Assembly: GCA_024638505.1 (NCBI GenBank)
Contig: JAHEKE010000009.1
Span: forward strand, 12,196 to 76,195
Origin: Gammaproteobacteria bacterium
GTDB taxonomy: Bacteria > Pseudomonadota > Gammaproteobacteria > Arenicellales > JAANXG01
Reading direction: 5' to 3'
Length of the DNA stretch: 64,000 nt
In this document: positions 8,036 through 48,871 of the stretch, in pieces
Numbering within the stretch: position 1 is the stretch's first letter
Layout of the letters: each line of letters starts with the position of its first letter
The notes under the pieces: model-generated
What the model saw: the letters and a program-made list of their open reading frames with translations, nothing else
Databases searched by the model: none
Told to the model about the DNA's origin: nothing
Translations under genes and position numbers: made by a program

Positions 8036-8049
8036 CAGTTGCCGCTGGC

Positions 8050-9554: not shown

Positions 9555-12301
<2,747 letters not shown>

Positions 12302-32935: not shown

Positions 32936-33349
32936 ATGAATCCGGCCTTAAGCCTGCGTAATTCCTGCCTTTTGATTTGTTGTCTTTGCCTCTTCTCCAT
33001 CTGGGCATGGGCTCAGCCCTCGGGGGACATCATTCAGCAGATTGAAAACTCCACGCCCCTGGAGCGGGCGCTGGCGCAGGCTGAAGTGTTGACCGACGTG
33101 CTGGGGCTGAGCCCGGAGCAGACCGAGAAGCTGATAAAGATCAATCTTAAATATTCAAATCGAGTACAACGATTGATCGAAAAAGGTGTCGAAGATACTG
33201 TTATGCTCATCAGCGCGCAGGAATTTGCTCAGGAAAAAGACGAAGAAATCAAGAATTTGTTAACAAAAGAGCAGCTGCGTCGTTACGAGAGACATAAGGC
33301 GAAGCTCAGAAAAATCGTCAGGGACGTGATACAAGAACGCAATCGGTAG
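32936..33349 (+). CDS. Small secreted helical protein with LTxxQ-like motifs (Spy/CpxP-like?)
   Basis: From ATG 32936 the protein begins MNPALSLRNSCLLICCLCLFSIWAWA|QP, a signal peptide. The remainder is charged and helical, with LSPEQTEKL and LTKEQLRRY motifs. Confidence 0.6.
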   Translation: MNPALSLRNSCLLICCLCLFSIWAWAQPSGDIIQQIENSTPLERALAQAEVLTDVLGLSPEQTEKLIKINLKYSNRVQRLIEKGVEDTVMLISAQEFAQEKDEEIKNLLTKEQLRRYERHKAKLRKIVRDVIQERNR

Positions 33350-33358
33350 GCGGGTAAG

Positions 33359-34231
33359 ATGACGATACGGCTAGGGCATCCTGTGTGCGCCGCACGTGTT
33401 TTGGCGGCGGCTGTGCTGTATTGTCTTAGCCTTTCCGCGCCGGCGACGACGGTGGGCGATCTGCAGGCGGCCCGGGATAACCTGGGCGCTGCGCGCGCCG
33501 CGCTGGCCAGCGCGGCGGGGGAGTTTACCACTTTGCTCGCCGACAATAGCCTTAGCCAGACCGAGAAAAAGGATTTCCTGTTTTATCTGGACCGGCTAAA
33601 GCAGGTGGTGCAGGAGAAATGCCGAGAGGTGCTGACTGTAAAAGCAGCGCTTGAGGACAATACGCCAGAGCGGGGATGCAACCAAGTCGTCATGTCACCG
33701 CCTGAGGTTTCATTCCCCAGCGAGCAAACCGAGGACGAACGAGTGGCCGCACTCGAAAATCAGCTTAGATCCTCCATGTCAGAATTCGACGAGCTATTGT
33801 TACGTCAGATGGAGGAGCTAGAGCGCCAGCGGTCCACGGCGTCTAGTGGATCGGCCGGAACGGATGCGGCGGAAGACGGCGGCCAGCAGGGCGGTACGAG
33901 CGGCGGAGCGGGAGAGAAACCGGCGCAAGATGAGTCTGCGCAGGAGGGTACGAAGGAGGAAGGCGGCGGCGAAGCGCAAGGCCAGCAGCAGACTGCGGCT
34001 AGAGACGCACCGGGGGAACAGCAGCAAGGTGGAACCCGCGGTGGTCAGAGTAAGGAACAGGCCGGTAGCGCGGTCAGGCGAGATGATCCTCCTGCTGCGG
34101 GAGATGACGATATTGTGGCGCGGCAGCTGCGGGAGGCGGCCGAAAACGAGGCCGATCCGGAGCTACGCGAGAAGCTGTGGGAAGAGTATCGACGTTACAA
34201 AGAGGATAATGCGGTATCCAAGTCCAATTGA
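33359..34231 (+). CDS. Secreted protein with acidic Gly/Gln/Glu-rich disordered region
   Basis: 290 aa. It has a signal peptide (...LYCLSLSAPA) and a helical N-terminal half. A low-complexity region of about 80 aa (SGSAGTDAAEDGGQQGGTSGGAGEKPAQDE...) follows, then a conserved-looking tail DDDIVARQLREAAENEADPELREKLWEEYRRYK. Confidence 0.6.
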   Translation: MTIRLGHPVCAARVLAAAVLYCLSLSAPATTVGDLQAARDNLGAARAALASAAGEFTTLLADNSLSQTEKKDFLFYLDRLKQVVQEKCREVLTVKAALEDNTPERGCNQVVMSPPEVSFPSEQTEDERVAALENQLRSSMSEFDELLLRQMEELERQRSTASSGSAGTDAAEDGGQQGGTSGGAGEKPAQDESAQEGTKEEGGGEAQGQQQTAARDAPGEQQQGGTRGGQSKEQAGSAVRRDDPPAAGDDDIVARQLREAAENEADPELREKLWEEYRRYKEDNAVSKSN

Positions 34232-34239
34232 TTAATGCG

Positions 34240-35547
34240 ATGAACTGCTGCTTGAGATTGCGCTTTAGATTACTCTGCTTGTTGGCTATCTTATTGACCG
34301 CCTGTCAGACGCTGCCACCGGCAACAACGCTGGATACGCCGATCAACAACGCGCAAACGGAGGTTGCAGAAGACGAACTGCTTGATGTGGGTATCCACGT
34401 TCTAGCGCAAGGCCCGATCAGCGATGATGCCAGGGAGAGGGGCATAAACGAGGATGTGCGCGGGGCAGAGGGGCGCTTCATGGCGGTGCACTTGCGCAAA
34501 ACCATCCAGCAAACGGGCCACTGGGGCGCAGTGCGCGTAATCCCAGCGCAAACGGAGGCCGTGGAAGTGGTGGTTAATGGAGAAATCGAGAAGTCTGACG
34601 GTGAATTCCTCACTCTCCGAATCGAGGCGGTTGACGCTACCGGCGTGACTTGGTTTAGTAAAGTTTATGAGAAAAGGGTGCCACCGTCGGCTTACAACGG
34701 AATGAAAGAAGAAGAGATTTTTCAGGATGTGTACAACCGCATAGCAAATGATTTACATCTGTCTAAATCGAAACTCTCTGCTTCGGAAATCGAAAAAATA
34801 CGTCGCGTGGCTGCCCTGCGCTTCGCTAGCTCCCTGGCGCCAGACGCGTTCAGTGACTATCTCGGCTCGGATGGAGGAATGTACAACGTTCAGCGTTTGC
34901 CCGCGGCTGAAGACCCCATGTTCGATCGGGTGTTGCGCATTCGCGAACGCGAATATCTGATGGTTGATGTAATCAACGGGTACTACGACAATCTTTATGC
35001 AGAGATGGAAACACCCTATTTTGACTGGCGTCGGCTCAGCGTTGAAGAGGCAGCGGCCTTGCAGGAGTTAAAGCGCAAAAGTACGCAGCGGTATCTGCTG
35101 GGCAGCGCCTTGATTCTGGGTGCCATTGCGGTTGAAGTGCTGGGTGGTGATAGCAATACTTCGACCTTGCGAGACGTAATGGTAATAGGCGGTGCGACTG
35201 CGGTAAAAAGCGGCGTAGATTTGGGTGCGCAGAAGAAGATGCACAAAGAGGCCATCCGCGAAATGGGCGAATCGTTTCAAGCGGAAGTGTCGCCAATGAT
35301 CGTAGACATCGAGGGCCAGACGACGGAGTTAACCGGGTCGGCAGAAGAGCAGTTCATCAAATGGCGAGAGCTGCTGCGGCAGATCTACCAATCGGAGACT
35401 GGTCTCCCGGTGCCGACGATCCGCGGCGAAGAGCTACCGCAACCTGAAGCAGAACCAGAACCCGCACCAAGTCCTCTGCCCCGAGCCGATGAGACGATCT
35501 CGCTGGTTCCATTCACTACTGCATCCAAGCATTCCGTTCAGGCATAA
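34240..35547 (+). CDS. Putative lipoprotein, unknown function
   Basis: ATG 34240 lies 8 nt after the upstream stop. The lipobox is LLAILLTAC|Q. About 435 aa, with an internal hydrophobic segment (YLLGSALILGAIAVEVLGG) and a Pro/Glu-rich tail. A TTG at 34228 is an alternative start. Confidence 0.6.
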   Translation: MNCCLRLRFRLLCLLAILLTACQTLPPATTLDTPINNAQTEVAEDELLDVGIHVLAQGPISDDARERGINEDVRGAEGRFMAVHLRKTIQQTGHWGAVRVIPAQTEAVEVVVNGEIEKSDGEFLTLRIEAVDATGVTWFSKVYEKRVPPSAYNGMKEEEIFQDVYNRIANDLHLSKSKLSASEIEKIRRVAALRFASSLAPDAFSDYLGSDGGMYNVQRLPAAEDPMFDRVLRIREREYLMVDVINGYYDNLYAEMETPYFDWRRLSVEEAAALQELKRKSTQRYLLGSALILGAIAVEVLGGDSNTSTLRDVMVIGGATAVKSGVDLGAQKKMHKEAIREMGESFQAEVSPMIVDIEGQTTELTGSAEEQFIKWRELLRQIYQSETGLPVPTIRGEELPQPEAEPEPAPSPLPRADETISLVPFTTASKHSVQA

Positions 35548-35652: not shown

Positions 35653-37134
35653 ATGATCGGAGATCAAAGCGCTACGGCAGGTGGGCACACGTCTTCAGGG
35701 CCGAAACCGCCTGAAGCAAAATCAACTTCCAACCTCGCCGTCCGCATCACTTTGCTGATAGCGCTGGTTGTTCTGGTGCTGGTAATGATTAGCGTGATCT
35801 GGGTTTTACCGCGTTATATCGACGAAGCCACTGTTCCGCTGGTCGAAGCACCAACCGCTCAAATCAGATCCACTGCGCCGCCGCCAACAGAAGCGCAAAC
35901 TCTCCTGGCCAGAGAGAAGCGTCAAGCAGAGCGGGCGCTGGGAGAATTTCTGCAAAGACAGGCATTGTGGGAAGGAAAAGAGATCGCGACATGGGGAGGT
36001 GAGCAATACGAACAAGTGTTGCGCACCCTTGCCGCAGCGGACGCCGCCTTCGCCAATGGTGACTTTGAGCTGGCTAAAACTAAATACACTACGGCCAGCG
36101 CGATGTTAAGCGAGCTCGAAGCTTCCAGACCCGAGCGCCTGCAGGCAAGTCTGCAGGCCGCTGCGACGGCGCTTACAGACTTCGACGCGGCTAAGGTACA
36201 GCACCATTATCAAATAGCGCTCGCGCTGGAACCACAGAATGAAGAGGCGCTAAAGGGTTTGAAACGTGCTGCCACTCTGCCACAACTCGCGGCACTGCTT
36301 GCTCAGGCGGGGGAGGCGGAGCGGCTGAGTGACTGGCCTGCCGCGCAAGAATTCTATGAGCAGGCTGTTACCCTGGATCCGCAATCAAACGAGGCTCGCC
36401 AGGGCTTGGCACAGGTCAGCGCCCAGCTCGAGGATGTACGCTTTCGTACGCTAATGTCTAATGCCCTGGCGGCGACGCAAAATGGGCAGTTTGAGTCAGC
36501 GCGTGAGGCATTGTCTGATGCGGGTAAGCTTAGGCCGGATGCGCCGGATGTGCGCGACGCTGAACAGCGTCTGCGCTTAGCCATCCAGCAGTCCAGAATT
36601 TCTGCTCATCGACGCCGCGCTGAGACTTTTGTACAGCAGGAGCGCTGGCAAGAGGCGGCAGAAGAATATGATGCGGCACTGGCCATCGATGCCCAGGCGC
36701 AGTTTGCACTACACGGTCGCAGGCACAGTAAAAATCTGGCAGCGCTGCATGGTCAGCTAGGCCAATACCTCATGCAGCCGGAACGCTTACATTCAGTGGA
36801 GCCTCGCGCTAACGCTCGAGCGCTTCTCCAGACGCTGCGGGGAATGGCAGATAAAGGGCCCCGGCTTGCGCAAAAGGAGCAAGATCTGGAGAGAATAATG
36901 GAATTAGCGGAAACCCCGGTTATGGTGCAGCTGCTGTCAGATGAAGAAACTGAGGTGCGCATAGATCGCGTCGGCGAGCTCGGACGCTTCAAGCAATCAA
37001 CCGTTGCGCTGCTGCCAGGAAACTATGTCGTTCGAGGCAACCGGGTAGGTTATCGGGACGTACGACTTGAACTGGTTGTGCAACCAGGAGCGACCGCATC
37101 ACCCCTGGTTGTAAAGTGTAGGGAAAAGATTTGA
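35653..37134 (+). CDS. Membrane-anchored TPR-repeat protein with C-terminal PEGA-like beta module
   Basis: 493 aa with one N-terminal TM helix (ITLLIALVVLVLVMISVIWVL). Repeated TPR-like units follow (...YQIALALEPQNEEALKGL..., ...YEQAVTLDPQSNEARQGL..., ...YDAALAIDAQAQFAL...). The C-terminal ...LLPGNYVVRGNRVGYRDVRLELVV resembles a PEGA module. Confidence 0.7.
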   Translation: MIGDQSATAGGHTSSGPKPPEAKSTSNLAVRITLLIALVVLVLVMISVIWVLPRYIDEATVPLVEAPTAQIRSTAPPPTEAQTLLAREKRQAERALGEFLQRQALWEGKEIATWGGEQYEQVLRTLAAADAAFANGDFELAKTKYTTASAMLSELEASRPERLQASLQAAATALTDFDAAKVQHHYQIALALEPQNEEALKGLKRAATLPQLAALLAQAGEAERLSDWPAAQEFYEQAVTLDPQSNEARQGLAQVSAQLEDVRFRTLMSNALAATQNGQFESAREALSDAGKLRPDAPDVRDAEQRLRLAIQQSRISAHRRRAETFVQQERWQEAAEEYDAALAIDAQAQFALHGRRHSKNLAALHGQLGQYLMQPERLHSVEPRANARALLQTLRGMADKGPRLAQKEQDLERIMELAETPVMVQLLSDEETEVRIDRVGELGRFKQSTVALLPGNYVVRGNRVGYRDVRLELVVQPGATASPLVVKCREKI

Positions 37135-39470
37135 ATTCAATAACGGTGATTACCGACGACGGTCAGGCTACGCGCTGCGCCGAATCGGAGTTCATAGTAA
37201 TTGGCGGCAGTACAGCCAGGGTTTCGCTGCCGGGGGATTCGAGCAGTAATGAATACGCTTATATTGAGAATCGTCAGGGTCACCCGTGGCTGGTACCTTT
37301 AATCCCAACCATTACCGCGCAGATAAACGGAAAAATAATTACGCAGGCAAGCCCGCTTAGAGACGGGGATGTGGTAACCGTTGGTGAGGCCGCTTTCTCA
37401 ATCAGTACGGCACCGCAGTTACTTACAATCACAACCATCGATGCCCAGCGATCGCTGCCGGAGGTGGCGGCAAGCAGTGCTGCGTCCGCTGGAAGAATGC
37501 GCCTGTTCAAGCTGGCGCTGTATGCGACATTCTTGCTCCTTGTTATGGTCGTATTGTTTGTATTCTTCGCAACCCCTGTTTCACTGGTGATCACACCAGA
37601 TCCCGAGAGCACGCAGTTTAGGGGTTTTCCTCCTCCGGTCAGGGTGAAGGATCGATACCTGGTTTTGCCCGGACAGTATGAGGTGCGTGCGTCGAAAAAC
37701 GGCTATGAGTCGTTAAAGGTAACGGTGTCCGTTACGCGTGGCGACTTCCAGGAGCTGAGTTATGCGCTGCAAAAGCTGCCGGGCCGAGTTAGCATATATT
37801 CACAACCGGCAGACGCTGTCGTCACGCTGGATGGTCGAACTATCGGGTTGACTCCCCTGGTGCACAGCAAGATTCCAGCCGGACGCCACGAGGTAATCGT
37901 ATCTGCTCCGCGCTACCAGGCGCAGCAGCTGGACTTGAATGTGGAGGGTCTGGATAGAGAGCAGATTATCCGCATTGATCTTGCCCCAGATTGGGCGCCA
38001 GTGACGGTTCGTTCACAGCCTGCAGGTGCGGATATCTTTATCGATGGTGAACGACTTGGTGTATCACCCTTAACGACGGAACTTTTGTCCGGCAAACACG
38101 TTGTATCGATCGAACTCGAGCGACATCTGCCGGAAAAGGTAGAGGTGGAAGTCGAGGCAGGCATGGCTCTGGTTTTACCGGCGGTTGCGCTTACGCCTAC
38201 ACCCGGCAGGTTAAGGATAACCAGCAAACCGGCGGATGCAACGGTTACCCTTGATGGCACTTACCAGGGTAGTACGCCGCTTGATTTGACGCTGACTCCA
38301 GATGTGGATCACGCCATTACGCTGACCAAAGCCGGTTATGTTGAGAAGAAGCGCACGGTCAACATGAAGGCGGCAGCGGAAGAAACGATAATGGTAGACT
38401 TACAGGCGGAGTATGGCGTGATATTCATTGCCAGTGATCCGGTTGACGCAACGCTGTATGTGGACGGTGAACAGCGCGGAAGTGCGAGTCAGCGACTGCG
38501 CCTGACAACGCGCCCGCACACGCTGGAGTTCCGTAAACCTGGGTATAAGACGTACCGCACGACGCTTACTCCCCGAGCGGGCGTGAGCAAGGAACTTTCT
38601 GTCAACTTGTTGCCGGATAGCGCAAATGTCGGATCACCGGCTGGATCCGATAGGATTCGAACCGCCGAGGGTCAGGAGTTAAAGCTGGTCACACCCGGCC
38701 AATTTACCATGGGTGCGTCAAGACGGGAGCAGGGACGCCGTGCCAATGAAAATCTGCGCCGCATAGAACTTACCCGTCACTACTATATGGGGACGAAGGA
38801 GGTTACGAACGCAGAGTTCCGTCGGTTTAAACCGGGGCATAGTTCTGGCGCCGCTTATGGCCGCAGCCTAGATCTGGATAATCAGCCGGTGGTGAACGTG
38901 AGCTGGGAAGACGCCGTTGCCTATTTGAATTGGCTCAGTAAAAGAGAAGGTTTGCCGGTTGTTTACCAGCAGCGTGGTGATAAATGGGAGGCAGTCTCCC
39001 CTCTTGGCCCGGGTTATCGATTACCCACGGAGGCAGAATGGGCGAATGCCGCGCGTTTTTCGGGAGCGGAACCCAGGAAGTATGCCTGGAATGGCTCCTA
39101 TCCACCGCGTGAAAGCACGGAGAACTTCGGCGACCAATCTGCGGCTGGCTTGCTTCCATACACTCTGGCGTCATACAGCGACGGTTTTGCTGTCAGTGCG
39201 CCGGTGGGCAGCTTTGCACCGAATGAATCCGGGTTCTATGATCTGGGTGGTAACGTGGCAGAATGGATGCACGATTATTATGAAATACAACCCGCTCAGA
39301 CCAATGCGCTGGCGAAAGATCCGGTCGGACTCACATCAGGCAGGCATCACGTAATACGCGGTGCGGGGTGGAAAGACTCCACTATCAGCGAGCTGCGGTT
39401 AAGTTTTCGTGACTACGCGGATGGTCCACGCGATGACCTAGGTTTCAGGATTGCTCGTTATGCGGATTAG
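37131..39470 (+). CDS. FHA - TM - PEGA-repeat array - FGE/sulfatase-modifying-factor-fold protein (cysteine-free, probably non-catalytic)
   Basis: 779 aa, overlapping the upstream gene by 4 nt. Residues 1-95 are FHA-like (FIVIGGSTARVSL...INGKII...LRDGDVVTVGEAAFSI). Residues 124-148 form a TM helix. Four clear PEGA units plus one degenerate unit follow (SQPADAVVTLDGRTIGLTPL, SQPAGADIFIDGERLGVSPL, SKPADATVTLDGTYQGSTPL, SDPVDATLYVDGEQRGSAS). The C-terminal roughly 265 aa carry FGE-sulfatase-family motifs: GYRLPTEAEWANAAR, DLGGNVAEWMHDYY, RGAGW and GFRIAR. Confidence 0.8.
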   Translation: MNSITVITDDGQATRCAESEFIVIGGSTARVSLPGDSSSNEYAYIENRQGHPWLVPLIPTITAQINGKIITQASPLRDGDVVTVGEAAFSISTAPQLLTITTIDAQRSLPEVAASSAASAGRMRLFKLALYATFLLLVMVVLFVFFATPVSLVITPDPESTQFRGFPPPVRVKDRYLVLPGQYEVRASKNGYESLKVTVSVTRGDFQELSYALQKLPGRVSIYSQPADAVVTLDGRTIGLTPLVHSKIPAGRHEVIVSAPRYQAQQLDLNVEGLDREQIIRIDLAPDWAPVTVRSQPAGADIFIDGERLGVSPLTTELLSGKHVVSIELERHLPEKVEVEVEAGMALVLPAVALTPTPGRLRITSKPADATVTLDGTYQGSTPLDLTLTPDVDHAITLTKAGYVEKKRTVNMKAAAEETIMVDLQAEYGVIFIASDPVDATLYVDGEQRGSASQRLRLTTRPHTLEFRKPGYKTYRTTLTPRAGVSKELSVNLLPDSANVGSPAGSDRIRTAEGQELKLVTPGQFTMGASRREQGRRANENLRRIELTRHYYMGTKEVTNAEFRRFKPGHSSGAAYGRSLDLDNQPVVNVSWEDAVAYLNWLSKREGLPVVYQQRGDKWEAVSPLGPGYRLPTEAEWANAARFSGAEPRKYAWNGSYPPRESTENFGDQSAAGLLPYTLASYSDGFAVSAPVGSFAPNESGFYDLGGNVAEWMHDYYEIQPAQTNALAKDPVGLTSGRHHVIRGAGWKDSTISELRLSFRDYADGPRDDLGFRIARYAD

Positions 39471-39666
39471 CTTATTACTCGCGGTGCTTATGCTTTTCCT
39501 GACCGCGGGCGCGATAGGTCAAGAGAAAAGCACGGGCGATGTCAGCGCGGACGCACCAGGCGAAAACCAGGAGCAGAGAGTCGAGACCAAAGACATACCC
39601 TCTCAGTTTGTCCCCAAAGAAAAAATTTCACCTGATCAAGTAATTTCTTTTCCCGCTGATATATAG
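39460..39666 (+). CDS. Small secreted protein (68 aa)
   Basis: ATG 39460 overlaps the upstream stop by 11 nt. The signal peptide is MRISLLLAVLMLFLTAGAIG|Q, and the mature part is acidic and polar. No motif is recognised. Confidence 0.5.
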   Translation: MRISLLLAVLMLFLTAGAIGQEKSTGDVSADAPGENQEQRVETKDIPSQFVPKEKISPDQVISFPADI

Positions 39667-39682
39667 GTTAACAACAAGCGTT

Positions 39683-40504
39683 ATGAACAAAGCCATTCCC
39701 GTTGAATTTTTCTACCAGGTTTTTTCTCTGCTGATCGCCATAATTATCGTGCACGCGGTATACGTAGCGGTTATCCGGCCTAATGCTGATGCCTTTATTG
39801 AGCATGAAGTGGCACAGATGAAAGCCGATCCTGAGTACGTACAGAGACGGTCGATTTTCGTTGTGATCCGCGATTTTGAGCAGGAAGCCTGCTTTGTTTT
39901 AGCGCTGTGGGCATTCAGCATCATGGGTTATAAAGGTGTCACAACTTATCGTGAGCGCAAGCTGCTTGATAGTGATCCTCTGGGCGGCAATAGTGACAGG
40001 TCGGGTGGCGGATTGAATATTGCCGGGCTAGCAAAGCGCCTGGATACACTGCCACGCCGCGCACGGGAAATGCTGCTGCCGAGGGCACTGGACGCGGCGC
40101 TGTCACGATTCTCTGCAACAGGAAGTGTGCACGATGCATCTGCAGCGGCAAGAGAGATCTCGCAAACCGAGGCCGAACGACTTGAATCTGAGCTATCCAT
40201 CATACGCTACATTGCATGGGCCATCCCCTCTATAGGATTCATCGGCACCGTTCGGGGTATTAGTGACGCGCTGGCGCAGGCTCATCGCGCAGTAGAAGGG
40301 GACATCACGGGAGTCACGCAGAGTCTGGGCGTTGCATTCAACTCTACATTCGTCGCGCTGGCGATCAGCATTGTCGTTATGTTCTTTGTGCACCAGTTGC
40401 AGTTAGCGCAGGAGCGAGTGGTGTTAGACACGGAAACTTATTGTGACCGCAACCTGATTCGTCAGCTGACGAAAACCGGGAGCAAAGCCTCGCTCGATCC
40501 GTAG
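39683..40504 (+). CDS. MotA/TolQ/ExbB-family proton-channel protein
   Basis: 273 aa. The C-terminal region IAWAIPSIGFIGTVRGISDALAQ...GVAFNSTFVALAISIVVMFFV matches the MotA_ExbB channel core (...P.lGllGTV.G...AL.tT..Gl...). N-terminal TM helices are separated by a cytoplasmic insert of about 100 aa. Confidence 0.8.
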   Translation: MNKAIPVEFFYQVFSLLIAIIIVHAVYVAVIRPNADAFIEHEVAQMKADPEYVQRRSIFVVIRDFEQEACFVLALWAFSIMGYKGVTTYRERKLLDSDPLGGNSDRSGGGLNIAGLAKRLDTLPRRAREMLLPRALDAALSRFSATGSVHDASAAAREISQTEAERLESELSIIRYIAWAIPSIGFIGTVRGISDALAQAHRAVEGDITGVTQSLGVAFNSTFVALAISIVVMFFVHQLQLAQERVVLDTETYCDRNLIRQLTKTGSKASLDP

Positions 40505-40571
40505 ATATGTCAACAAGTCTATTGCAAGTGAAAATCTATCCAGGGATGCGCAGAATAGCGGCTTGCTTACC

Positions 40572-41657
40572 GTGAAGCGGCGCAGAGAAGTCAACGTTTT
40601 CGGGCTGTCCTTCCTGGACGTCATGTTTTGCGGTTTTGGTTCGGTCATTCTGCTGGTAATGATCATCAACTCGGAAACGCTGGCACAACGTAAAGAGGTA
40701 CATGAAGATCTTAGGGGCGAAGTGAAGCGTCTGCAGACGGAGGTTAATGTGGGGCAGGATTACCTGGTGCAGGTGCGTAATACCCTGACTCTGGTTAATC
40801 AGCAGAGCGCTGTGGCACAGGGTCGCGCACGTGAAGCGTTAGAGCAGATCAACCAGATCAAAATAGAACTGGCTGATCTGACCCGGCAGGCGCAGTCACA
40901 GATCGAGCATGTCAACCGTCTGAAATCAGATCTCAAGCAGGCGGAGGCCGACCGGCAGCAGCTGGCGAGCGAGAGGGAGCAGGCCGAGCAGCAGGGGCGC
41001 AACGTGCGCCGCTTCGTCGGGGAAGGGGACCGCCAGTACCTGACTGGCCTGAAGATTGGTGGAAAAAGAATCCTGATTCTGCTCGACGCATCAGCCAGCA
41101 TGCTCGACGAGACGATAGTCAACATACTGCGTTTACGTAACCTCCCGGCAAGCACTAGACGGAATGCGGAAAAATGGCAGCGTGCGTTAAGAACAGTGGA
41201 GTGGTTGCTGAGCCAGATACCGAGCACCAGCAGCTTTCAAGTACTGGTGTTCAACGCAGAAACCAGCGCTGTGCATAGCGAGAAGCAGTGGCTTCAACCC
41301 GTTGCAAACAATCTCGATCAGGTCATCGCCGGCCTGAGTCTAATGGCCCCATCAGGCGGAACCAGTCTGTTTAATGCATTTGACACCATTAAACAGATTG
41401 CCCCCAAACCTGACAACGTCATTTTGGTAACCGACGGTTTACCGACGCAAGGAAAATCGAAGCACAGCGGGGGGCGGGTTTCGGGCAAGCAGCGCCTTGA
41501 GTATTTCAAGCAGGCTACCAGAAGATTGCCAAAAAACGTCCCGGTCAACACCATCTTGTTTCCCATTGAAGGCGATCCGCTGGCGGCCAGTGAATTTTGG
41601 AAGCTGGCGGTCGACAGCGGCGGATCATTCATGAGTCCATCGAGTGACTGGCCATGA
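40572..41657 (+). CDS. Bitopic protein: ExbD/TolR-like N-terminal TM helix + coiled coil + vWA domain (paralog 1)
   Basis: The GTG 40572 start was chosen by analogy with the paralog (MKRRREVNVFGLSFLDVMFCGFGSVILLVMII versus MKRHRRGLQVFSISFLDVVCSAFGAIILVLVL). An Asp lies in the TM helix at 40617-40619. A heptad-rich segment of about 110 aa follows. The vWA domain has a complete MIDAS motif (LLDASASM ... GGTSL ... VTDGLP). Confidence 0.75.
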   Translation: MKRRREVNVFGLSFLDVMFCGFGSVILLVMIINSETLAQRKEVHEDLRGEVKRLQTEVNVGQDYLVQVRNTLTLVNQQSAVAQGRAREALEQINQIKIELADLTRQAQSQIEHVNRLKSDLKQAEADRQQLASEREQAEQQGRNVRRFVGEGDRQYLTGLKIGGKRILILLDASASMLDETIVNILRLRNLPASTRRNAEKWQRALRTVEWLLSQIPSTSSFQVLVFNAETSAVHSEKQWLQPVANNLDQVIAGLSLMAPSGGTSLFNAFDTIKQIAPKPDNVILVTDGLPTQGKSKHSGGRVSGKQRLEYFKQATRRLPKNVPVNTILFPIEGDPLAASEFWKLAVDSGGSFMSPSSDWP

Positions 41658-42661
41658 AGCGACACCGACGGGGGTTGCAGGTTTTCAGTATCTCTTTCCT
41701 GGATGTAGTGTGTTCAGCCTTCGGCGCCATCATTCTAGTATTGGTTCTGTCAAAGACTGGGGAACCGCGGGTTTTGGAAAAGCTGGGCGCTGATTTGCAG
41801 GGCGTCGTAGCGGATTTACAGCAGAAGCTGTATGAAATCCGTGGTGAGACGCAGGTTTTGAATCGAGACCTGGAAAGAAAGCAACCTCAACTCTCACAGT
41901 CCCGAGAGAATCTGGCCCGCCTGCTGCAGGATTTGTCGGTAAAGCGTGGAGAATATGAAGACACGTCGGAGCAATTGGAGACGCAGCGCCTCATAGCGGG
42001 CAAGTTGGCGTCGGCTCGCCAGTCTCTCAGCGAGGAGATGAGGCGTTTACTTGGTAGTGATTACCGGCGTAAGGCCGATGACACCACGGTCGGCGGTATT
42101 CCTGCAGACAGTCAGTACATCATATTCATAATTGATACTTCTGCCAGCATGTTTAATTACAGTTGGGGCCTTATGCAGAAAAAAGTTGAAGAAACGCTGG
42201 ATATTTATCCCGCTGTCAAGGGTATACAGGTTATGAATGACATGGGACAGTATATGTATTCGCAGTACTCAGGCAGATGGATTCCCGACACGCCAGCTCG
42301 TCGGAAGGCCATTCTGCGACGGTTGGCAAGCTGGAATCCTTTCAGCAATAGCAGTCCGGTGGAGGGAATCACGGTTGCCATTCGCACCTTTTATGAGCCC
42401 GGCAAGCCTATCAGTCTTTATGTGCTGGGCGATGAATTCTCGACCGGCTCTATCGAACAAGTAGTAAAAACCGTGGATAGATTCAACCGGGCGGACAAAG
42501 ATGGCAAGCGCCTGGTGCGCATTCACGCCGTTGGCTTTCCCGTTCAGTTTCAGCGTGGGGATGGACAAGATGCGACCGGTGTACGCTTCGCTGCACTGAT
42601 GCGTATACTGTGCGCACGCAACGGAGGCACTTTTGTTGGACTGAATCGCATTAGCCCTTAA
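41654..42661 (+). CDS. Bitopic protein: ExbD/TolR-like N-terminal TM helix + coiled coil + vWA domain (paralog 2)
   Basis: 335 aa with a 4-nt ATGA overlap with paralog 1. It has the same N-terminal SFLDV TM motif, with Asp at 41702-41704. A coiled coil follows. The vWA domain carries IIDTSASM (DxSxS) and VLGDEFS. Confidence 0.75.
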   Translation: MKRHRRGLQVFSISFLDVVCSAFGAIILVLVLSKTGEPRVLEKLGADLQGVVADLQQKLYEIRGETQVLNRDLERKQPQLSQSRENLARLLQDLSVKRGEYEDTSEQLETQRLIAGKLASARQSLSEEMRRLLGSDYRRKADDTTVGGIPADSQYIIFIIDTSASMFNYSWGLMQKKVEETLDIYPAVKGIQVMNDMGQYMYSQYSGRWIPDTPARRKAILRRLASWNPFSNSSPVEGITVAIRTFYEPGKPISLYVLGDEFSTGSIEQVVKTVDRFNRADKDGKRLVRIHAVGFPVQFQRGDGQDATGVRFAALMRILCARNGGTFVGLNRISP

Positions 42662-42873: not shown

Positions 42874-43281
42874 ATGGCGACTGAGATACCACTAAAGGCC
42901 GAAGATATTGTGCTTCTGCAAAAGCGTCTGGCTGGCGAGCTTGAGCAGTTAAAAAAGGAGATTAACGCAGAGCTGGAGCGGGATGATCTCTCAAGATACA
43001 CCTCCATAATCGACGAAGTCAGGGACCGCGGTGACCAGTCAGTCGCAGATCTTTATTCCGATTTGGAGCTGCATCTGGTCGAGCGGCAAGTTGAAAGGCT
43101 GGGGGATGTGGAGCGTGCTCTGCAGCGCATCGAAGATAAAGCCTTCGGTATCTGTGAAGATTGTTCGCTAGCGATAAGTAAGCCGAGGCTCGAGGCCGAC
43201 CCAACAGTGCGCCGTTGTGTAAGCTGTCAAACTCGGGTGGAAAATGTGCCCAGCGCGAAAGATGTTACTCCCTCTCTCTAG
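42874..43281 (+). CDS. DksA/TraR-family C4-type zinc-finger protein
   Basis: 135 aa. It has a coiled-coil N-terminal region with a DRGDQS tip-like motif and the C-terminal zinc finger CEDC...(17 aa)...CVSC. Confidence 0.8.
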   Translation: MATEIPLKAEDIVLLQKRLAGELEQLKKEINAELERDDLSRYTSIIDEVRDRGDQSVADLYSDLELHLVERQVERLGDVERALQRIEDKAFGICEDCSLAISKPRLEADPTVRRCVSCQTRVENVPSAKDVTPSL

Positions 43282-43291
43282 AGTCTTGTTC

Positions 43292-43714
43292 CTAGCGGCG
43301 AATGTGACAAGCAATACAGCTGCCTGACAAGCGTCCGGCGAGATAATAGTTTGGCGGTTCTGCTGCCACTGCTTTGCGTGCGGCCTCGACGTTGTATTTG
43401 AACTGGTCGATGTTTTCATCAATAAAAAGGTGGTTAGTTTTTTGCGTCCCTGCTCCGAGCTCAATTGCCTCCTGCTCGATTTGCTGCAGCAAGCTGATTA
43501 TTCTTTCTCTCTGGTAACCGCTGATGTGCTCGTTGCTGTCAAATATATCGTTGATGGTCCACATGCTGGTATTTAATTTCTGCATGGTACCTTTAATCTT
43601 ACTGTCATCAAGATAAACCATATTCGGCGGGTATGTTCTCATTCCCACCTGTACGCAGCCGAAGAGGAAGGCCAGGGCGATGCAACAAGCTAGGGCGATT
43701 CGAAGGGCGTGCAT
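43292..43714 (-). CDS. Class II (cytochrome c'-like four-helix-bundle) c-type cytochrome, lipoprotein
   Basis: 140 aa with the lipobox ALAFLFGC. It is predicted to be all-helical. A single heme-binding CxxCH (CIACH) lies 3 residues from the C-terminus, the arrangement diagnostic of class II cytochromes c. Confidence 0.6.
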   Translation of the reverse strand: MHALRIALACCIALAFLFGCVQVGMRTYPPNMVYLDDSKIKGTMQKLNTSMWTINDIFDSNEHISGYQRERIISLLQQIEQEAIELGAGTQKTNHLFIDENIDQFKYNVEAARKAVAAEPPNYYLAGRLSGSCIACHIRR

Positions 43715-43804
43715 GACAGAGTTACTCCTGTGACAAACTTATGACGGGATTTCGCTATGCTTGTGGTTTCAAGCTAATGCTACCTGTCGTAAGATTGAGC
43801 AATG

Positions 43805-43818
43805 TTGATTTAAGTCAA
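43805..43818. promoter_or_regulatory. FNR/ANR-type box TTGAT-ttaa-GTCAA in the divergent cytochrome c'-like / hemerythrin promoter region
   Basis: 9 of 10 positions match the consensus. A TAATTT hexamer at 43841-43846 is centred exactly 32 bp downstream toward the hemerythrin gene (ATG 43872). TAGCAT (minus strand, 43782-43777) lies 32 bp away on the other side, toward the cytochrome gene. Confidence 0.5.
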
Positions 43819-43871
43819 TACGAATCGTGTGCGAACACGGTAATTTTTATCAATCTGTAGGATCGATAGGC

Positions 43872-44453
43872 ATGAGTAATCTAATCTCGCAAATTTATCA
43901 AGATCACCTGCACATGGCGCGGATCTTGAAACTGATAAAAAGTGAAATCGATGCCTTAATCGCTGAGGAACCGAGGGACCTTGAAGTACTGGATGATGCA
44001 TTGCGTTACTTAATCAACTACGCCGATAAAATTCATCATGCCAAGGAAGATATTATCTTTCACCGACTGCAACAAGTTGACCCAGCCAGCAGAGAGGTAC
44101 TAAACGATATTTTCAGCGAACACCAGGAGCTGTTCACCAAAGGCACTGAGTTTCAGCATCTTGTGCGGGCAGTGGAAATAGGTGATTTTGTCTTGCGCAA
44201 AGAGATCGTGGCGAAAGGAAAAGCGTATACTGATGCGCTGTTTTCGCACATGCGAAAGGAAGAAGAAAACATACTAAAAAGGGCGCAAGAGAAGCTGTCG
44301 GAGGAGGATCTCGCAGAACTTGATTTGGATCATCTCACCGCTACCGATCCTCTTTTCGGCGAAGAGGTGCAGAAAGAATACCAAGATTTATACAATTACA
44401 TCTTGGATCAATATGGCGAAGACTGGCGTCACCCAGCACATCGCGTAGTTTGA
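43872..44453 (+). CDS. Hemerythrin-like (HHE cation-binding) domain protein
   Basis: From ATG 43872 the protein begins MSNLISQIYQDHLHM.... It has the spaced His/Glu ligand motifs of hemerythrin-like domains: DHLH, HHAKED, EHQE and HMRKEE. Confidence 0.75.
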   Translation: MSNLISQIYQDHLHMARILKLIKSEIDALIAEEPRDLEVLDDALRYLINYADKIHHAKEDIIFHRLQQVDPASREVLNDIFSEHQELFTKGTEFQHLVRAVEIGDFVLRKEIVAKGKAYTDALFSHMRKEEENILKRAQEKLSEEDLAELDLDHLTATDPLFGEEVQKEYQDLYNYILDQYGEDWRHPAHRVV

Positions 44454-44493
44454 TAACGTTCCCGTGGGTGCTGCCTGTCAGCCGGTATCGGTA

Positions 44494-46053
44494 ATGGCAG
44501 ATAGCGCTGTCGCCCGATTTCCCCCGCTGGTGCGGTCGCTGTGTGAGCGCTCGCTTTATGACCACCCGGTTAATGATATACAAGTCCTGGAGACCCACAT
44601 TTCGTACGTCATTCTCACCGGCCCCTACGCTTATAAGCTGAAAAAACCCGTGCAGTTGCCTTTCCTCGACTTCAGCAGCGTCGAATTGCGCAGATTCTAT
44701 TGTAAGGAGGAGCTGCGCTTGAACCAGCGCCTGGCCCCTGACTTGTATCTGGCTGTGGTCCCTGTTACCGGTAGTGACAGGGCTCCTCAGCTGAGCGGGA
44801 GCGGCGACGTCATCGACTATCTAGTGAAGATGATTCAGTTCGACACCAGCCAGGAATTAGATGCAGTGCTGCGGCATAGCGATCTCGACCGCGGGCTGGT
44901 ATTGACGCTGGCAGAGCGACTGGCGGCATTTCATCAGAGTGTCGATTCGAGCACCGATCAGGACTTCGGATCGCACCAGATCGTAGGGCGCTGCATCAGG
45001 GACAATTTCAAAGCGATCCTGCCATGCGTGAAGTCGAATAACCGCGATAAAGTGAGTCCGTTGCGGCAATGGGTTGATGCACAGCTGCGTGCGCATAGAA
45101 ATACTATAGCCAGGAGAAAACAGGACGGTTTTGTCCGCGAATGCCATGGTGATTTGCATCTGGGCAACATGGTGATTATAGGCGGCAGTATCCGCATGTT
45201 TGATTGTCTGGAATTCAACGCACATCTGAGATGGATAGATGTAATCAGCGAGATTGCGTTCTTAGTAATGGACTTCGATCATCAGCGACGCAGCGATCTT
45301 GGTTATTTATTGTTGAATCGCTATTTACAGGTGACCGGAGACTATGCCGGACTTGAAATGTTGCCTTTGTACTTAGTGTATCGCGCTATGGTGCGGGCTA
45401 AAGTCGTATGCATCAAATCGCTGCAATCGATGGATCGATCCGCCACGCCTCCATCACTGCTGGCCTACTTCGAGTTAGCGCAGGGCTACACGCGTCTCCC
45501 GCCTCCTCGATTATTTATTACCCACGGAGTGTCTGGCTCTGGTAAAAGCTGGTTATCGGAGCGCGTCACGGCGCTGCTCCCCGCCATCCACATACGATCG
45601 GACATCGAAAGACGCCGTTCTGCATCTCTCACGGCTGACGAATCCATGGATGATTCATCCGTTCGATACGATACGGAAAACGTCGAGCTTATTTATGACG
45701 AGTTATGGCGCTTAGCGCAAGTAATACTTAGCGCCGGTTTTACCGTGGTGGTTGATGCAACATTCTTGCTTGCTGCGCGGCGGGAACGATTTCGGCAGCT
45801 GGCAGTCAACATGAAAGCATCGTTTAGAATTCTAGATTTCCAGTGCGCGCAAACTGTGCTGTATGAACGTGTCGCCAAGCGCAAGCGGGAAGGAAAGGAT
45901 CCATCCGAGGCAACGGTGGAAGTTCTCAACAAGCAGCTGCAACATGCGCAGGCGCTGAGCACTGCGGAGCAAAAAGACTCTATATCAATACATAGTGATG
46001 AGGAAATTGATGTCTCGGCCCTGGCCAAACGTATATTGCGCAGCGTCGCATAA
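44494..46053 (+). CDS. Bifunctional aminoglycoside-phosphotransferase-like kinase domain / P-loop (AAA_33-type) kinase domain protein
   Basis: About 519 aa from ATG 44494; a GTG at 44464 is also possible. The N-terminal APH/protein-kinase-like fold carries HGDLHLGNM and ...FDCLEFN.... The C-terminal P-loop is GVSGSGKS. Confidence 0.75.
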   Translation: MADSAVARFPPLVRSLCERSLYDHPVNDIQVLETHISYVILTGPYAYKLKKPVQLPFLDFSSVELRRFYCKEELRLNQRLAPDLYLAVVPVTGSDRAPQLSGSGDVIDYLVKMIQFDTSQELDAVLRHSDLDRGLVLTLAERLAAFHQSVDSSTDQDFGSHQIVGRCIRDNFKAILPCVKSNNRDKVSPLRQWVDAQLRAHRNTIARRKQDGFVRECHGDLHLGNMVIIGGSIRMFDCLEFNAHLRWIDVISEIAFLVMDFDHQRRSDLGYLLLNRYLQVTGDYAGLEMLPLYLVYRAMVRAKVVCIKSLQSMDRSATPPSLLAYFELAQGYTRLPPPRLFITHGVSGSGKSWLSERVTALLPAIHIRSDIERRRSASLTADESMDDSSVRYDTENVELIYDELWRLAQVILSAGFTVVVDATFLLAARRERFRQLAVNMKASFRILDFQCAQTVLYERVAKRKREGKDPSEATVEVLNKQLQHAQALSTAEQKDSISIHSDEEIDVSALAKRILRSVA

Positions 46054-46227
46054 AGGTCAGACCACCATCCACTCAACTTGATTCGATTGTATAATGAGGC
46101 TAACGACTTGCAGTCTTCTTGAAGTCGAGACAACAAGCACAGAACATCCAAAAATCTTTTGGCCGGGTGCGGATCGTTGTCTAAATAGTGCAGTAACCGA
46201 CATCACAGCGATAATGCCAACGGAAAC

Positions 46228-46848
46228 GTGGAGTTAAAAGTAGAAAATCTTGGCTGCGAAAGAAACGACCGATGGCTATTTTCAAAAATGAGTTTTGAGC
46301 TCAAGTCGGGAGAGCTGCTGCAGATTGACGGAGCAAACGGCAGCGGGAAAACTACGCTGCTTCGCACCGTGTGTGGGTTGGTGCCGGCTGATGAGGGAAA
46401 TGTCTACTGGTGCAACCGGCCTATCCAGCAAAATCGTCAAGGCTACTTTTCGCAACTGGCTTTCGTTGGCCACAAACACGGCATAAAGGATGAGTTGACC
46501 GCCGCAGAGAATCTGGAAATTGATCAGATCCTGGCCGCCAACCCTTCCAGTGTTTCTGTGCGGGAGGCCCTCGGTCGATTGGGCATTGGCGAATGCCGGC
46601 ACCAGCTGTGCCGTGAGCTGTCAGCGGGCCAGCGCCAGCGAGTTGCTCTGGCTCGTTTGCTGGTCTCTATCGCGCATTTTTGGGTGCTGGATGAGCCGTT
46701 GACCGCGCTTGACCAGGAAGCGCAGCGGACCGTGTGCGACCTGGTTGGTCAACATATTGCTGCCGGTGGCATGGTGCTGCTGACCAGTCATCAAAAATTG
46801 GATTGGAGCGGTCAGGCGCACCGGATCATTAAGTTGGGAAATGCGTAA
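46228..46848 (+). CDS. ccmA: Cytochrome c biogenesis heme exporter, ATP-binding subunit
   Basis: 206 aa with a GTG start. It has Walker A GANGSGKTTLLR, the signature LSAGQRQR and Walker B WVLDEP. It is the first gene of the ccm order. Confidence 0.92.
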   Translation: MELKVENLGCERNDRWLFSKMSFELKSGELLQIDGANGSGKTTLLRTVCGLVPADEGNVYWCNRPIQQNRQGYFSQLAFVGHKHGIKDELTAAENLEIDQILAANPSSVSVREALGRLGIGECRHQLCRELSAGQRQRVALARLLVSIAHFWVLDEPLTALDQEAQRTVCDLVGQHIAAGGMVLLTSHQKLDWSGQAHRIIKLGNA

Positions 46849-47530
46849 ACAGCAGACTTTCAGCATATTCACCGGGATTTTACGACGCGACCTCAAGCTG
46901 GCGGTACGGGCGCCCAGCCAATGGATCAATCCTCTGCTGTTCTTCTTAATCGCCGTAAGTTTGTTTCCGCTGGGCGTAGGGCCGGAGCAGAATATGCTCA
47001 GGGAGATTGCTCCCGGCGTCATTTGGGTAGCCGCCTTGTTGGCGGCCATGCTGGCGCAGGACAGCCTTTTTCGAGCGGATTTTGAAGACGGTTCTTTAGA
47101 ACAGATGTTAATCAGCTCTCGCCCGATGAGTATGATCATCATGGCGAAGGTGCTGGCACACTGGCTGGTTACCGGCCTGCCGCTGATTGTGTTATCCCCA
47201 GTTTTGTCTATTCTCATGGGCTTATCGCTAGTCGGCTGGTGGGCCTTACTCTTGACCTTGCTGCTCGGTACCCCCATCTTAAGCCTGTTGGGGGCAGTTG
47301 GTGCTGCTCTAGTGGTTAGCGTAAAGCGAGGCGGGGTATTGTTGTCGCTACTTGTTTTGCCTTTGTGCATCCCGGTTCTTATATTCGCCACCGCCGTGGT
47401 GCAAACCGCCGGTGTCGGTCTGGCTATTGAAGGTCAGGTTTCCTTGCTCGGGGCGCTGTTGGCGTTAAGCGTCACCCTGTCTCCTATTGCAATAGCCGGC
47501 GCGCTGCGCGTCACGGGTGGGGCGGCGTAA
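46841..47530 (+). CDS. ccmB: Heme exporter permease CcmB
   Basis: 229 aa and polytopic, with ...FEDGSLEQML.... It overlaps ccmA by 8 nt. Confidence 0.92.
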   Translation: MRKQQTFSIFTGILRRDLKLAVRAPSQWINPLLFFLIAVSLFPLGVGPEQNMLREIAPGVIWVAALLAAMLAQDSLFRADFEDGSLEQMLISSRPMSMIIMAKVLAHWLVTGLPLIVLSPVLSILMGLSLVGWWALLLTLLLGTPILSLLGAVGAALVVSVKRGGVLLSLLVLPLCIPVLIFATAVVQTAGVGLAIEGQVSLLGALLALSVTLSPIAIAGALRVTGGAA

Positions 47531-48273
47531 TGTGGACCTGGGCGCATAAGTTCGGTTCGCCGGGTTATTTTTATGCGTTAGCTGGCAAAGTGAATCCGTG
47601 GCTGACTGCTCTGTATATCGCACTTTTTGCGACAGGACTTTACCTTGGTCTGGTGGTAGCACCAACTGATTACCAGCAGGGCGACAGCTATCGAATAATT
47701 TTTGTACACGTTCCCTCTGCGTGGATGTCAATGTTCGTTTACGTGGTTATGGCGGTATTTGCTGCCATCGGGCTGATATGGCGGCTCAAACTGACCGCCG
47801 TACTGGCCAAGGCGTCGGCTCCGCTGGGCGCATCCTTTACCTTTTTGGCGCTGGCCACCGGCTCAATATGGGGTAAACCTATGTGGGGCACGTGGTGGGT
47901 ATGGGACGCACGCCTGACTTCAGAGTTGATACTGCTGTTTTTGTATCTTGGGTTCATGGCGCTGCAGGCGGCCATGCCCGATCGGCAGACGGCGTGGCGC
48001 GCGGGCGCCATCTTGTTACTGGTGGGAGTGGTCAATATTCCAATCATTCACTTCTCCGTGGATTGGTGGTATACACTGCATCAGCCGGCGACCATAACCA
48101 AGCTCGGCGCGCCTTCTATCCACCCCAGCATGCTGGTGCCGCTGCTCATTATGGCGGTTGCGTTCAAGGTGTTTTACCTATCGCTGCTGTTGTCCAGGGC
48201 GCGGGCGGAGATCCTTCATCGAGAGCGCAGAACCCGCTGGGTGCAGGAGCTGGCGAGGAGCGGACAGCTGTGA
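47530..48273 (+). CDS. ccmC: Heme exporter protein CcmC
   Basis: 247 aa with the WWD motif WGKPMWGTWWVWDARLT. Confidence 0.92.
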   Translation: MWTWAHKFGSPGYFYALAGKVNPWLTALYIALFATGLYLGLVVAPTDYQQGDSYRIIFVHVPSAWMSMFVYVVMAVFAAIGLIWRLKLTAVLAKASAPLGASFTFLALATGSIWGKPMWGTWWVWDARLTSELILLFLYLGFMALQAAMPDRQTAWRAGAILLLVGVVNIPIIHFSVDWWYTLHQPATITKLGAPSIHPSMLVPLLIMAVAFKVFYLSLLLSRARAEILHRERRTRWVQELARSGQL

Positions 48274-48425
48274 CCGAATTTTTATATATGGGAGGTTATG
48301 GTGGATACGTGTGGAGCGCCTATGGCTTGTGTCTGTTGGTTCTGCTGGCGAATGTGATTGCGGCACGCCTGCGCAACCACAACGCCAGACGGGAAGTCAA
48401 GAAGTATACGGGTAGAGAGCAATGA
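48270..48425 (+). CDS. ccmD: Heme exporter protein CcmD
   Basis: This small gene is hidden in the 3' end of an out-of-frame track ORF. It encodes (V)TEFLYMGGYGGYVWSAYGLCLLVLLANVIAARLRNHNARREVKKYTGREQ. A GTG at 48270 overlaps the ccmC stop, and ATG 48288 is an alternative start. The stop overlaps the ccmE ATG. Confidence 0.85.
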   Translation: MTEFLYMGGYGGYVWSAYGLCLLVLLANVIAARLRNHNARREVKKYTGREQ

Positions 48426-48871
48426 GAGCACAGCGCAGAAATCGTTTGTTTATGGTTATCTTTATCCTCATCGGCATAGGCATCGCAACCGCGCTGACGC
48501 TCAACGCGTTCAGGCAGAATATTCTCTTTTTTTTCACGCCGACTCAGGTTGTGGCGGGAGAAGCGCCCAGCGGGCATCCTTTTCGCATTGGAGGCCTGGT
48601 CGCCGTAGACAGCGTTGAACGTGCTGCCGGCAGCCTCAAAGTCCACTTTGATGTGACCGACACGGTCAATTCGGTCAGCGTAACCTATGAAGGCATCCTG
48701 CCTGATTTGTTCAAGGAAGGACAAGGTATCGTCACCAAAGGCATACTGGATGGTAAGGGTGTATTCGTGGCATCGGAAGTTCTGGCCAAGCATGATGAGA
48801 ACTACATGCCGCCGGAAGCAGAGCATGCGCTGAGAGCAGCGCAGACGCTGCAGAATAACTCGGATAAGTAA
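48422..48871 (+). CDS. ccmE: Cytochrome c-type biogenesis heme chaperone CcmE
   Basis: 149 aa with an N-terminal anchor and the heme-binding His in the VLAKHDENYMPPE motif. Confidence 0.93.
   Translation: MRAQRRNRLFMVIFILIGIGIATALTLNAFRQNILFFFTPTQVVAGEAPSGHPFRIGGLVAVDSVERAAGSLKVHFDVTDTVNSVSVTYEGILPDLFKEGQGIVTKGILDGKGVFVASEVLAKHDENYMPPEAEHALRAAQTLQNNSDK

Follow-up and report, generated by a model that had tools for sequence, protein, structure and literature searches.

A TolQ-like gene and two unlike vWA-headed membrane proteins as a candidate proton-driven motor of the gammaproteobacterial envelope

Introduction

Ion-driven 5:2 motors power flagella, TonB-dependent uptake, the Tol-Pal system, gliding and Zorya defence. 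In the DNA stretch considered here, 64,000 nucleotides from a Gammaproteobacteria bacterium of the Arenicellales (contig JAHEKE010000009.1; referred to as the window), a gene for a TolQ/ExbB-like channel subunit is followed by two further genes, p1 and p2, each of which encodes a basic N-terminus, an Asp-bearing transmembrane (TM) helix, a coiled-coil stalk and a head of the vWA (von Willebrand factor A) type, and this arrangement raises the question of whether p1 and p2 stand in for a B subunit of the ExbD, TolR or MotB kind. We conclude that the gene trio at 39683–42661 most likely encodes a proton-driven 5:2-type inner-membrane motor, in which the p1:p2 pair probably forms the Asp-bearing axle of a TolQ-like pentamer. 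The central idea of a vWA-tipped axle is already in print (Williams-Jones et al., 2025, Mol Biol Evol msaf138; PMC12204202), and the mechanism is plausible but unproven; added here are a conserved seven-gene core, fusions of p1 and p2 heads, and a p2 lineage with Ser in place of the Asp.

The Paralogous Pair and Its Membrane Helix

Between 33359 and 42661 the window holds eight open reading frames (ORFs), all on the same strand, with p1 and p2 as the last two (Table 1). For p1, a TTG at 40563 is open in addition to the GTG at 40572, and the latter has been favoured because homologs begin with MKRRR; the ATG of p2 at 41654 overlaps the p1 stop codon (ATGA). The N-terminal region of p1 reads MKRRREVNVFGLSFLDVMFCGFGSVILLVMII, with Asp16 encoded by GAC (40617–40619), and that of p2 reads MKRHRRGLQVFSISFLDVVCSAFGAIILVLVL, with Asp17 encoded by GAT (41702–41704), which are exactly the Asp codons named in the original prediction. 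Ortholog counts for both proteins have been based on ORFs from 83 related loci (84 for p1 and 82 for p2), and the two resulting families align in HHalign over 318 columns with a probability of 99.5%, an E-value of 2.7e-23 and 20% identity. Judged by this alignment, p1 and p2 are full-length paralogs, and the description of the pair as sharing a basic start and a nearly identical helix (SFLD-V in both) has been confirmed.

The N-terminal alignment shows the TM helices of p1 and p2 to be closely alike, and in both the Asp lies six residues into the hydrophobic stretch. Asp16 of p1 has been found in 84/84 orthologs, together with C20, G21 and G23, and Asp17 of p2 in 81 of 82 ORFs, the lone exception being a frame-shifted ORF call. 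Of the 150 top-ranking representatives in the wider family, 122 carry the Asp, which makes 122 of the 123 full-length ones; one p2-type cluster has Ser, and the others are N-terminally truncated or differ in architecture. The conservation of the Asp among homologs, which had been put forward as a check, has thereby been established. The Ser belongs to a p2-type lineage (P0498; L099/L100, 8928–10999) that reads MAFLSVITCCFG at this site and whose neighbouring p1 retains SFLDIM. The variant is real, with more than 20 contigs carrying it, and the whole operon is intact at its locus; one carboxylate per p1/p2 pair may suffice.

The net charge amounts to +3 (p1) and +4 (p2) before the helix and to +1 and 0 after it, and this positive-inside bias predicts a cytoplasmic N-terminus and periplasmic vWA heads, in agreement with their original placement. 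Heads of the p1/p2 type also occur at the C-terminus of BlaR1/M56-domain proteins and behind apparent signal peptides (N-terminal sequences judged by eye), which would fit an extracytoplasmic site. With a predicted N-in single TM helix whose conserved Asp lies near the cytoplasmic end, p1 and p2 resemble ExbD and TolR.

Kinship of the helix with these proteins has been examined at the profile level. No match to the ExbD/TolR family (PF02472) has been obtained for p1 or p2 among the Pfam or NCBIfam models, nor does Pfam assign any of 48 N-termini to it, and a HMMER profile of the same 48 N-termini has retrieved no ExbD, TolR, MotB, GldM or ZorB chain from all PDB sequences at E <= 10, with chance matches to NDUFB4 alone. 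HHalign was run against 16 ExbD/TolR sequences drawn from records of E. coli and of plasmids, after viral contigs, scanned for diverse members of the family, had yielded none. The Asp of the helix falls on the Asp of these proteins (SFLDVM on PLIDVM) with P = 0.008–0.2 and scores of 9–14, and the p2 alignment spans 29 columns. Decoys, namely reversed ExbD and three other TM helices of the cluster, have yielded equal scores (15.2 for reversed ExbD and 14.9 for ExbD against TM1 of the TolQ-like protein). The original prediction had called the helix ExbD/TolR-type and had itself named missing profile similarity as a reason to give this up; significant similarity is indeed absent, with no match in HMMER and HHalign scores at decoy level. 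Because a 23-residue helix gives such tests little power, membership in ExbD/TolR is to be regarded as not shown rather than excluded. Further downstream, p1 and p2 are without a C-terminal periplasmic domain of the ExbD/TolR type, and AlphaFold2 and Foldseek support the proposal that a coiled coil and a vWA fold have taken its place.

The TolQ-Like Channel Subunit

Pfam assigns the product of the gene upstream of p1 to MotA_ExbB with 55.5 bits against a cut-off of 22.9, and in NCBIfam the protein stays below the equivalog cut-offs of both TolQ and ExbB. Its AlphaFold2 model, with a predicted local distance difference test score (pLDDT) of 74, superposes best on TolQ (Foldseek template-modelling score 0.6–0.75), then on ExbB, and poorly on MotA. 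A MotA-like topology with four TM helices, involving the hydrophobic stretch 68–84, has been rejected since the model superposes far better on TolQ/ExbB. The motifs GTVRG (with T189) and FNST (with T222) are invariant in 76/76 channel orthologs, as is the triplet Asn220-Ser221-Thr222, and HHalign aligns T189 and T222 with the TolQ pore threonines T145 and T178. In the window protein, Val217 takes the place of TolQ E173, and Val is found there in 74 of the 76 orthologs. The MotA-family partner expected upstream of the pair has thus been recovered as a protein of TolQ-like fold that keeps both pore threonines.

Coiled-Coil Stalk and vWA Heads

Residues 36–142 of p1 show a hydrophobicity power at period 3.5 of 58, compared with 6.6 ± 6.7 in shuffled sequences, of which 0.05% reach this signal; for residues 40–128 of p2, the power is 42 compared with 7.4 ± 7.3, and in both proteins the heptads keep a single register. 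In the AlphaFold2 model of p1 (mean pLDDT 81), one unbroken helix extends from residue 14 to 142 and is followed by a low-confidence linker and an alpha/beta domain at 158–358. The heptad-rich segment, put at about 110 residues in the beginning, is therefore upheld as about 90–110 residues of unbroken heptads with a period-3.5 signal far above that of shuffles. The p2 stalk is 21 residues shorter than that of p1, and Pro38, located just outside the membrane, is present in 82/82 p2 sequences; because of these two features, p1 and p2 are not interchangeable.

The head of p1 matches Pfam VWA_2 at 2.4e-6, just above the cut-off, and p2 has no Pfam match. Foldseek places the p1 model with ITIH1, the VWA domain of CLCA1, BatB and alpha2delta at E ~1e-8, so that the proposed vWA domain is well founded. 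Of the metal ion-dependent adhesion site (MIDAS) of p1, residues D172, S174, S176 and D288 have been found in 84/84 orthologs and T264 in 83/84, and the full motif claimed for this paralog is thus conserved in all five residues. The corresponding site of p2 had been called degenerate, which has proven wrong: all 82 ORFs have D161, S163 and S165, 81 of them have S233 and D260, and 78 have S234, so that DxSxS, Ser-Ser and Asp are kept and the MIDAS Thr alone is replaced by Ser. Accordingly, p1 has a vWA fold with a conserved predicted MIDAS, and p2 is assigned the same by homology, with Ser for Thr.

Gene Linkage, Missing B Subunit and Head Fusions

The original prediction had proposed to look for genes of the TM, coiled-coil and vWA plan adjoining a MotA-family gene, and all 65 loci with enough sequence have a MotA/TolQ-like gene upstream of p1. 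Directly after p1 follows p2 in 76 of 77 loci. In the exceptional locus, L061, the place of p2 (11090–12300) is taken by a small Gly/Tyr-rich ORF on the opposite strand and two short ORFs, and the gap may represent a deletion or an assembly join. A classical B subunit gene (ExbD/TolR/MotB) is absent from the window and the 83 related loci. A profile hidden Markov model (HMM) of the 16 ExbD/TolR sequences has found nothing there on either strand, and with E. coli MotB one weak match alone has been obtained (E 0.0027), to a minus-strand ORF (8173–8847 of L022), which lies inside 6334–8781, the plus-strand coding region of a PEGA/FGE-sulfatase gene.

A scan with one genome for each GTDB species has detected relatives in at least 593 of these species, distributed over Gammaproteobacteria, Desulfuromonadales/Desulfobacterales, Acidobacteriota and others, and a HMMER search of 1.84 billion representatives has returned at least 764 clusters (50% identity) at E <= 1e-30. 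Most members stem from marine and sediment bacteria that are uncultured; among 72,556 plasmids, tblastn with p2 gave no match. At least eight clusters carry one p1-type and one p2-type vWA head in a single chain. In P0483 the heads follow a BlaR1/M56 domain (Pfam 1.2e-18) in the order p1-p2; P0489, P0499 and P0504 agree with it in length and layout, P0467 and P0486 are shorter, and P0361 and P0509 begin with an apparent signal peptide, behind which the heads stand in the reverse order, p2-p1. The fused domains match their own head type with E-values of 1e-38 to 1e-98. The joining of both head types in single chains argues that the p1 and p2 heads act as a 1:1 unit, which supports a heterodimer.

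The Conserved Gene Neighbourhood

The trio belongs to a seven-gene core that is preserved from Gammaproteobacteria to Acidobacteriota, and partly so in Verrucomicrobiota, and that consists of a secreted acidic protein, a lipoprotein, a TM-anchored TPR protein, a protein with FHA-like, TM, five PEGA and FGE-sulfatase parts, the TolQ-like subunit, p1 and p2 (Table 1). All seven genes are present in 43 of 44 loci with at least 9 kb of upstream sequence, and the verrucomicrobial locus L101 contains the PEGA/FGE-sulfatase, TolQ-like, p1 and p2 genes together with an extra gene.

Table 1. Features of the proposed motor locus, in window coordinates.
Feature	Position	Strand	Remarks
Secreted protein, 290 aa, acidic Gly/Gln-rich region	33359–34231	+	Conserved neighbour
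Predicted lipoprotein, 439 aa, without known domain	34228–35547	+	LLTAC lipobox by eye; conserved neighbour
TM-anchored TPR protein, 493 aa	35653–37134	+	Conserved neighbour
FHA-like N-terminus, TM helix, five PEGA, FGE-sulfatase-type domain; 779 aa	37131–39470	+	Conserved neighbour
Small protein, 71 aa, hydrophobic N-terminus	39451–39666	+	Just upstream of the TolQ-like gene
Channel subunit of the TolQ/ExbB kind, 273 aa, candidate A subunit of a pentamer	39683–40504	+	Pfam MotA_ExbB 6.1e-15
p1 (paralog 1), 361 aa	40572–41657	+	Basic start, TM helix with the Asp, coiled-coil stalk, full-MIDAS vWA head
p1 TM ('transpore') helix, residues 10–32	40599–40667	+	Asp16 at 40617–40619; invariant CGFG; hydropathy peak 2.48
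p1 stalk, residues 33–142	40668–40997	+	Continuous heptad coiled coil
p1 vWA domain, residues 158–358	41043–41645	+	MIDAS D172-x-S174-x-S176 (41085–41099), T264, D288
p2 (paralog 2), 335 aa	41654–42661	+	Plan as p1; stalk about 21 aa shorter, invariant Pro38 past TM helix, MIDAS Thr replaced by Ser
p2 TM helix, residues 11–32	41684–41749	+	Asp17 at 41702–41704
p2 vWA-type domain, residues ~145–335	42086–42658	+	D161-T-S163-x-S165 (42134–42148), S233/S234, D260; HHalign to p1 family

In the 779-residue protein, Pfam recognises PEGA (1e-53), FGE-sulfatase (1.9e-44) and, weakly, FHA (0.0075). The weak FHA match (37131–37460) lies on the predicted cytoplasmic side, and the bulk of the protein, made up of the five PEGA domains and the FGE-sulfatase part, would be periplasmic; the FHA-like N-terminus hints at a phospho-threonine-dependent control of the machine. 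For the FGE-sulfatase domain (38875–39470), PorK/GldK is the best NCBIfam model (9.5e-34), with 117 bits against a cut-off of 350, and PorK tops the PDB list as well; a specific PorK/GldK kinship has been rejected, as true FGEs score almost alike, and the domain is taken as a generic FGE-sulfatase one. An extra gene of about 435–500 aa is inserted between the channel gene and p1 in 30/78 loci, the window not being among them (e.g., L002 8673–10004, L100 7631–8938, L101 8474–9973, and in L017, L055, L065, L074 and L076). It has no Pfam family, and HHalign (93%, E 2.4e-7) shows homology between its C-terminal region and the FHA-like start of the PEGA protein.

A gene of about 71 codons occupies the same position in L001–L003, L099 and L101, with poorly conserved sequence. 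The 151-aa gene at 32894–33349 (DUF4890 in L001) has been found in two related loci alone, L001 and L004, and is therefore not counted as core. Downstream of p2, the region 42874–50851 contains genes for a DksA/TraR zinc-finger protein (42874–43281), a hemerythrin-like protein (43827–44453), an AAA/APH-type kinase-like protein (44464–46053) and ccmA to ccmF from 46228 on, and the order agrees with that of L001, an Arenicellales metagenome-assembled genome, so that the window probably stems from a relative. Scans for promoters and terminators between 32000 and 44000 gave counts no higher than in shuffled sequences. A reading of the cluster as a defence system has been rejected, PADLOC having returned a weak ZorA match (channel, 1e-3) and coiled-coil noise (p1).

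The Proposed Motor and Its Alternatives

The assignment of the p1:p2 pair as the axle is based on the conserved Asp, the TolQ-like neighbour with its fold, the tight linkage, the absence of a classical B subunit gene, the head fusions, the continuous stalk and the conservation of the MIDAS, and the same model has been reached independently with AlphaFold 3 for such gene pairs (PMC12204202). As to how the helices enter the pentamer, the 1:1 stoichiometry, proton coupling, ligand and cellular role, we infer the following scheme. Five TolQ-like subunits would surround one p1 and one p2 helix, with p1 D16 and p2 D17 level with the threonine ring, where both would take up and release protons alternately, in the manner of TolR D23 and ExbD D25. 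Each helix would pass uninterrupted into a parallel coiled coil, whose periplasmic part would measure about 13–16 nm, and the vWA head at the tip of the stalk would use its MIDAS metal to grip an acidic residue of a partner near the cell wall or the outer membrane. The axle could either be held still by its heads, as MotB, or turn as a shaft, as GldM, and torque or pull would be passed on to a larger envelope machine comprising the FHA-TM-PEGA-FGE-sulfatase protein, the TPR protein, the lipoprotein and the secreted protein.

Several observations speak against this assignment. The helix is without significant sequence or profile similarity to ExbD, TolR or MotB in HMMER and HHalign; the proton path of the channel may differ from that of TolQ, because Val stands at the E173 position; and two carboxylates are not strictly required, given the p2 lineage with Ser. 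L061 has a p1 without p2 alongside, the N-in/heads-out topology has the positive-inside rule as its sole basis, and a literature search has found no experimental study. The lack of detectable homology of the helix to ExbD/TolR would also suit a different function, in which p1 and p2 stay outside the channel as scaffold or adhesion proteins of the BatA/BatB kind, anchored in the membrane and bearing a vWA head, their Asp and CGFG serving helix packing, and the TolQ-like protein acts alone or with a B subunit encoded elsewhere. BatB is indeed among the structural matches of the p1 head, and a TPR protein occurs in the cluster as, by general knowledge, in bat operons. We nevertheless consider this function unlikely, as packing alone hardly explains an invariant charged TM residue in both paralogs across phyla, a MotA/TolQ-like gene stands upstream in every one of the 65 loci with enough sequence and no B subunit lies nearby, and neither MoxR nor DUF58 is among the Pfam families listed for L001–L003 and L099–L101.

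If the motor principle is kept, p1 and p2 might each form homodimers, resulting in two kinds of motor that share one TolQ-like pentamer. The great likeness of the two TM helices and the solitary p1 of L061 are compatible with such an arrangement, and B subunits with solved structures are, as is generally known, homodimers; the 1:1 occurrence of p1 and p2 in 76/77 loci, with a stop codon that overlaps the next start, the single chains that bear one head of each type, and the confinement of Ser-for-Asp to p2 while its p1 retains the Asp make it quite improbable. A position on the outside of the pentamer, where p1 and p2 would be force transducers like TolA and TonB instead of an axle, is suggested by a separate vWA family of TolA-like kind that has been described in PMC12204202. 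As that family has a SHLS/His motif and tolR-like genes, neither of which accompanies p1/p2, and as the pentamer would be left without any axle, such a position is highly improbable.

Should p1 and p2 indeed form the axle, they would represent the first proton-binding axle that itself bears integrin-like metal-dependent adhesion heads on a rigid stalk. More speculatively, and with considerable doubt, the whole cluster might be an undescribed envelope-spanning rotary machine, in which the TolQ-like pentamer turns a rigid heterodimeric coiled-coil shaft, comparable to the turning of GldM/PorM in the type IX secretion system (T9SS), and the two MIDAS heads of this shaft engage the PEGA/FGE-sulfatase protein or the lipoprotein close to the cell wall. 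FHA-like modules in the cytoplasm would then regulate the assembly, and a drive train analogous, and unrelated, to that of the T9SS would be widespread among Gammaproteobacteria, Desulfobacterota, Acidobacteriota and Verrucomicrobiota. The co-conserved genes provide a concrete list of candidate partners, and named or cultured carriers, i.e., Puniceicoccaceae K14, strain IMCC39146 and the case published from Idiomarina, offer a route for testing.

Comparison With Known Systems

With TolQ-TolR and ExbB-ExbD, the trio shares the fold of the A subunit, both pore threonines, an N-in single TM helix with the Asp at comparable depth, and, locally, the motif [FL][LI]D[VI]M, on which p1/p2 align in register. 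It differs from them in that the helix has no significant profile similarity, a TolR/ExbD periplasmic domain and a TolA- or TonB-like third protein are missing here, and the channel has Val at the position of TolQ E173; moreover, the helix of p1/p2 leads straight into a long coiled coil, whereas a flexible linker follows in those systems. GldLM/PorLM of the T9SS resembles the proposed motor by its bitopic B subunit, which forms a long rigid periplasmic dimer reaching an outer complex, and by an FGE-sulfatase-fold protein in the machine (PorK/GldK). However, p1/p2 have no sequence relationship to GldM, the score for GldK remains below its cut-off as described above, and in GldLM the protonatable residue is located on the A subunit.

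Two different B-type subunits beside one A subunit are likewise found in AglR-AglQ-AglS and in loci with ExbD1/ExbD2. AglQ and AglS are ordinary members of the TolR/ExbD family with no stalk or vWA head, and the tandem ExbD paralogs that we have seen in loci L091 and L097 are in the same way ordinary ExbD genes that lack both. BatA/BatB proteins share with p1/p2 the N-terminal membrane anchor and the vWA head, and BatB matches the p1 head in structure. There is, however, no TolQ-like partner in these systems, and to our knowledge no conserved TM Asp. Bat operons carry MoxR and DUF58 genes as well as a TPR protein, and the former two are not among the Pfam families listed here.

The closest agreement has been found with the 'transpore-helix vWA' (TPH-vWA) genes, which have been described beside tolQ-like genes together with AlphaFold 3 models, the seed being an Idiomarina loihiensis protein, and which occur mostly in 'heterologous pairs' in Proteobacteria and Verrucomicrobia (PMC12204202, section 8, Fig. 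4c,d). Two recent surveys of 5:2 motors make no mention of vWA partners. Common to the TPH-vWA genes and p1/p2 are a TM-tethered vWA domain, a conserved Asp in the helix, unlike pairs beside a tolQ-like gene, the absence of tolR, exbD and motB, a retained Thr ring in the channel, and a distribution that includes Proteobacteria and Verrucomicrobia; in the N-terminal alignment p1/p2 are also without the SHLS/His motif, as is this class. p1 and p2 thus show every listed TPH-vWA feature, as matched to the published description. The original prediction had regarded a heterodimeric inner rotor with adhesion domains as a new variation on 5:2 motors; this has to be withdrawn, since the same architecture and inference are already published and paired unlike B subunits are not unusual. 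What distinguishes the present account from PMC12204202 are the stalk, the seven-gene core, the head-to-head fusions and the Ser variant, which are reported here.

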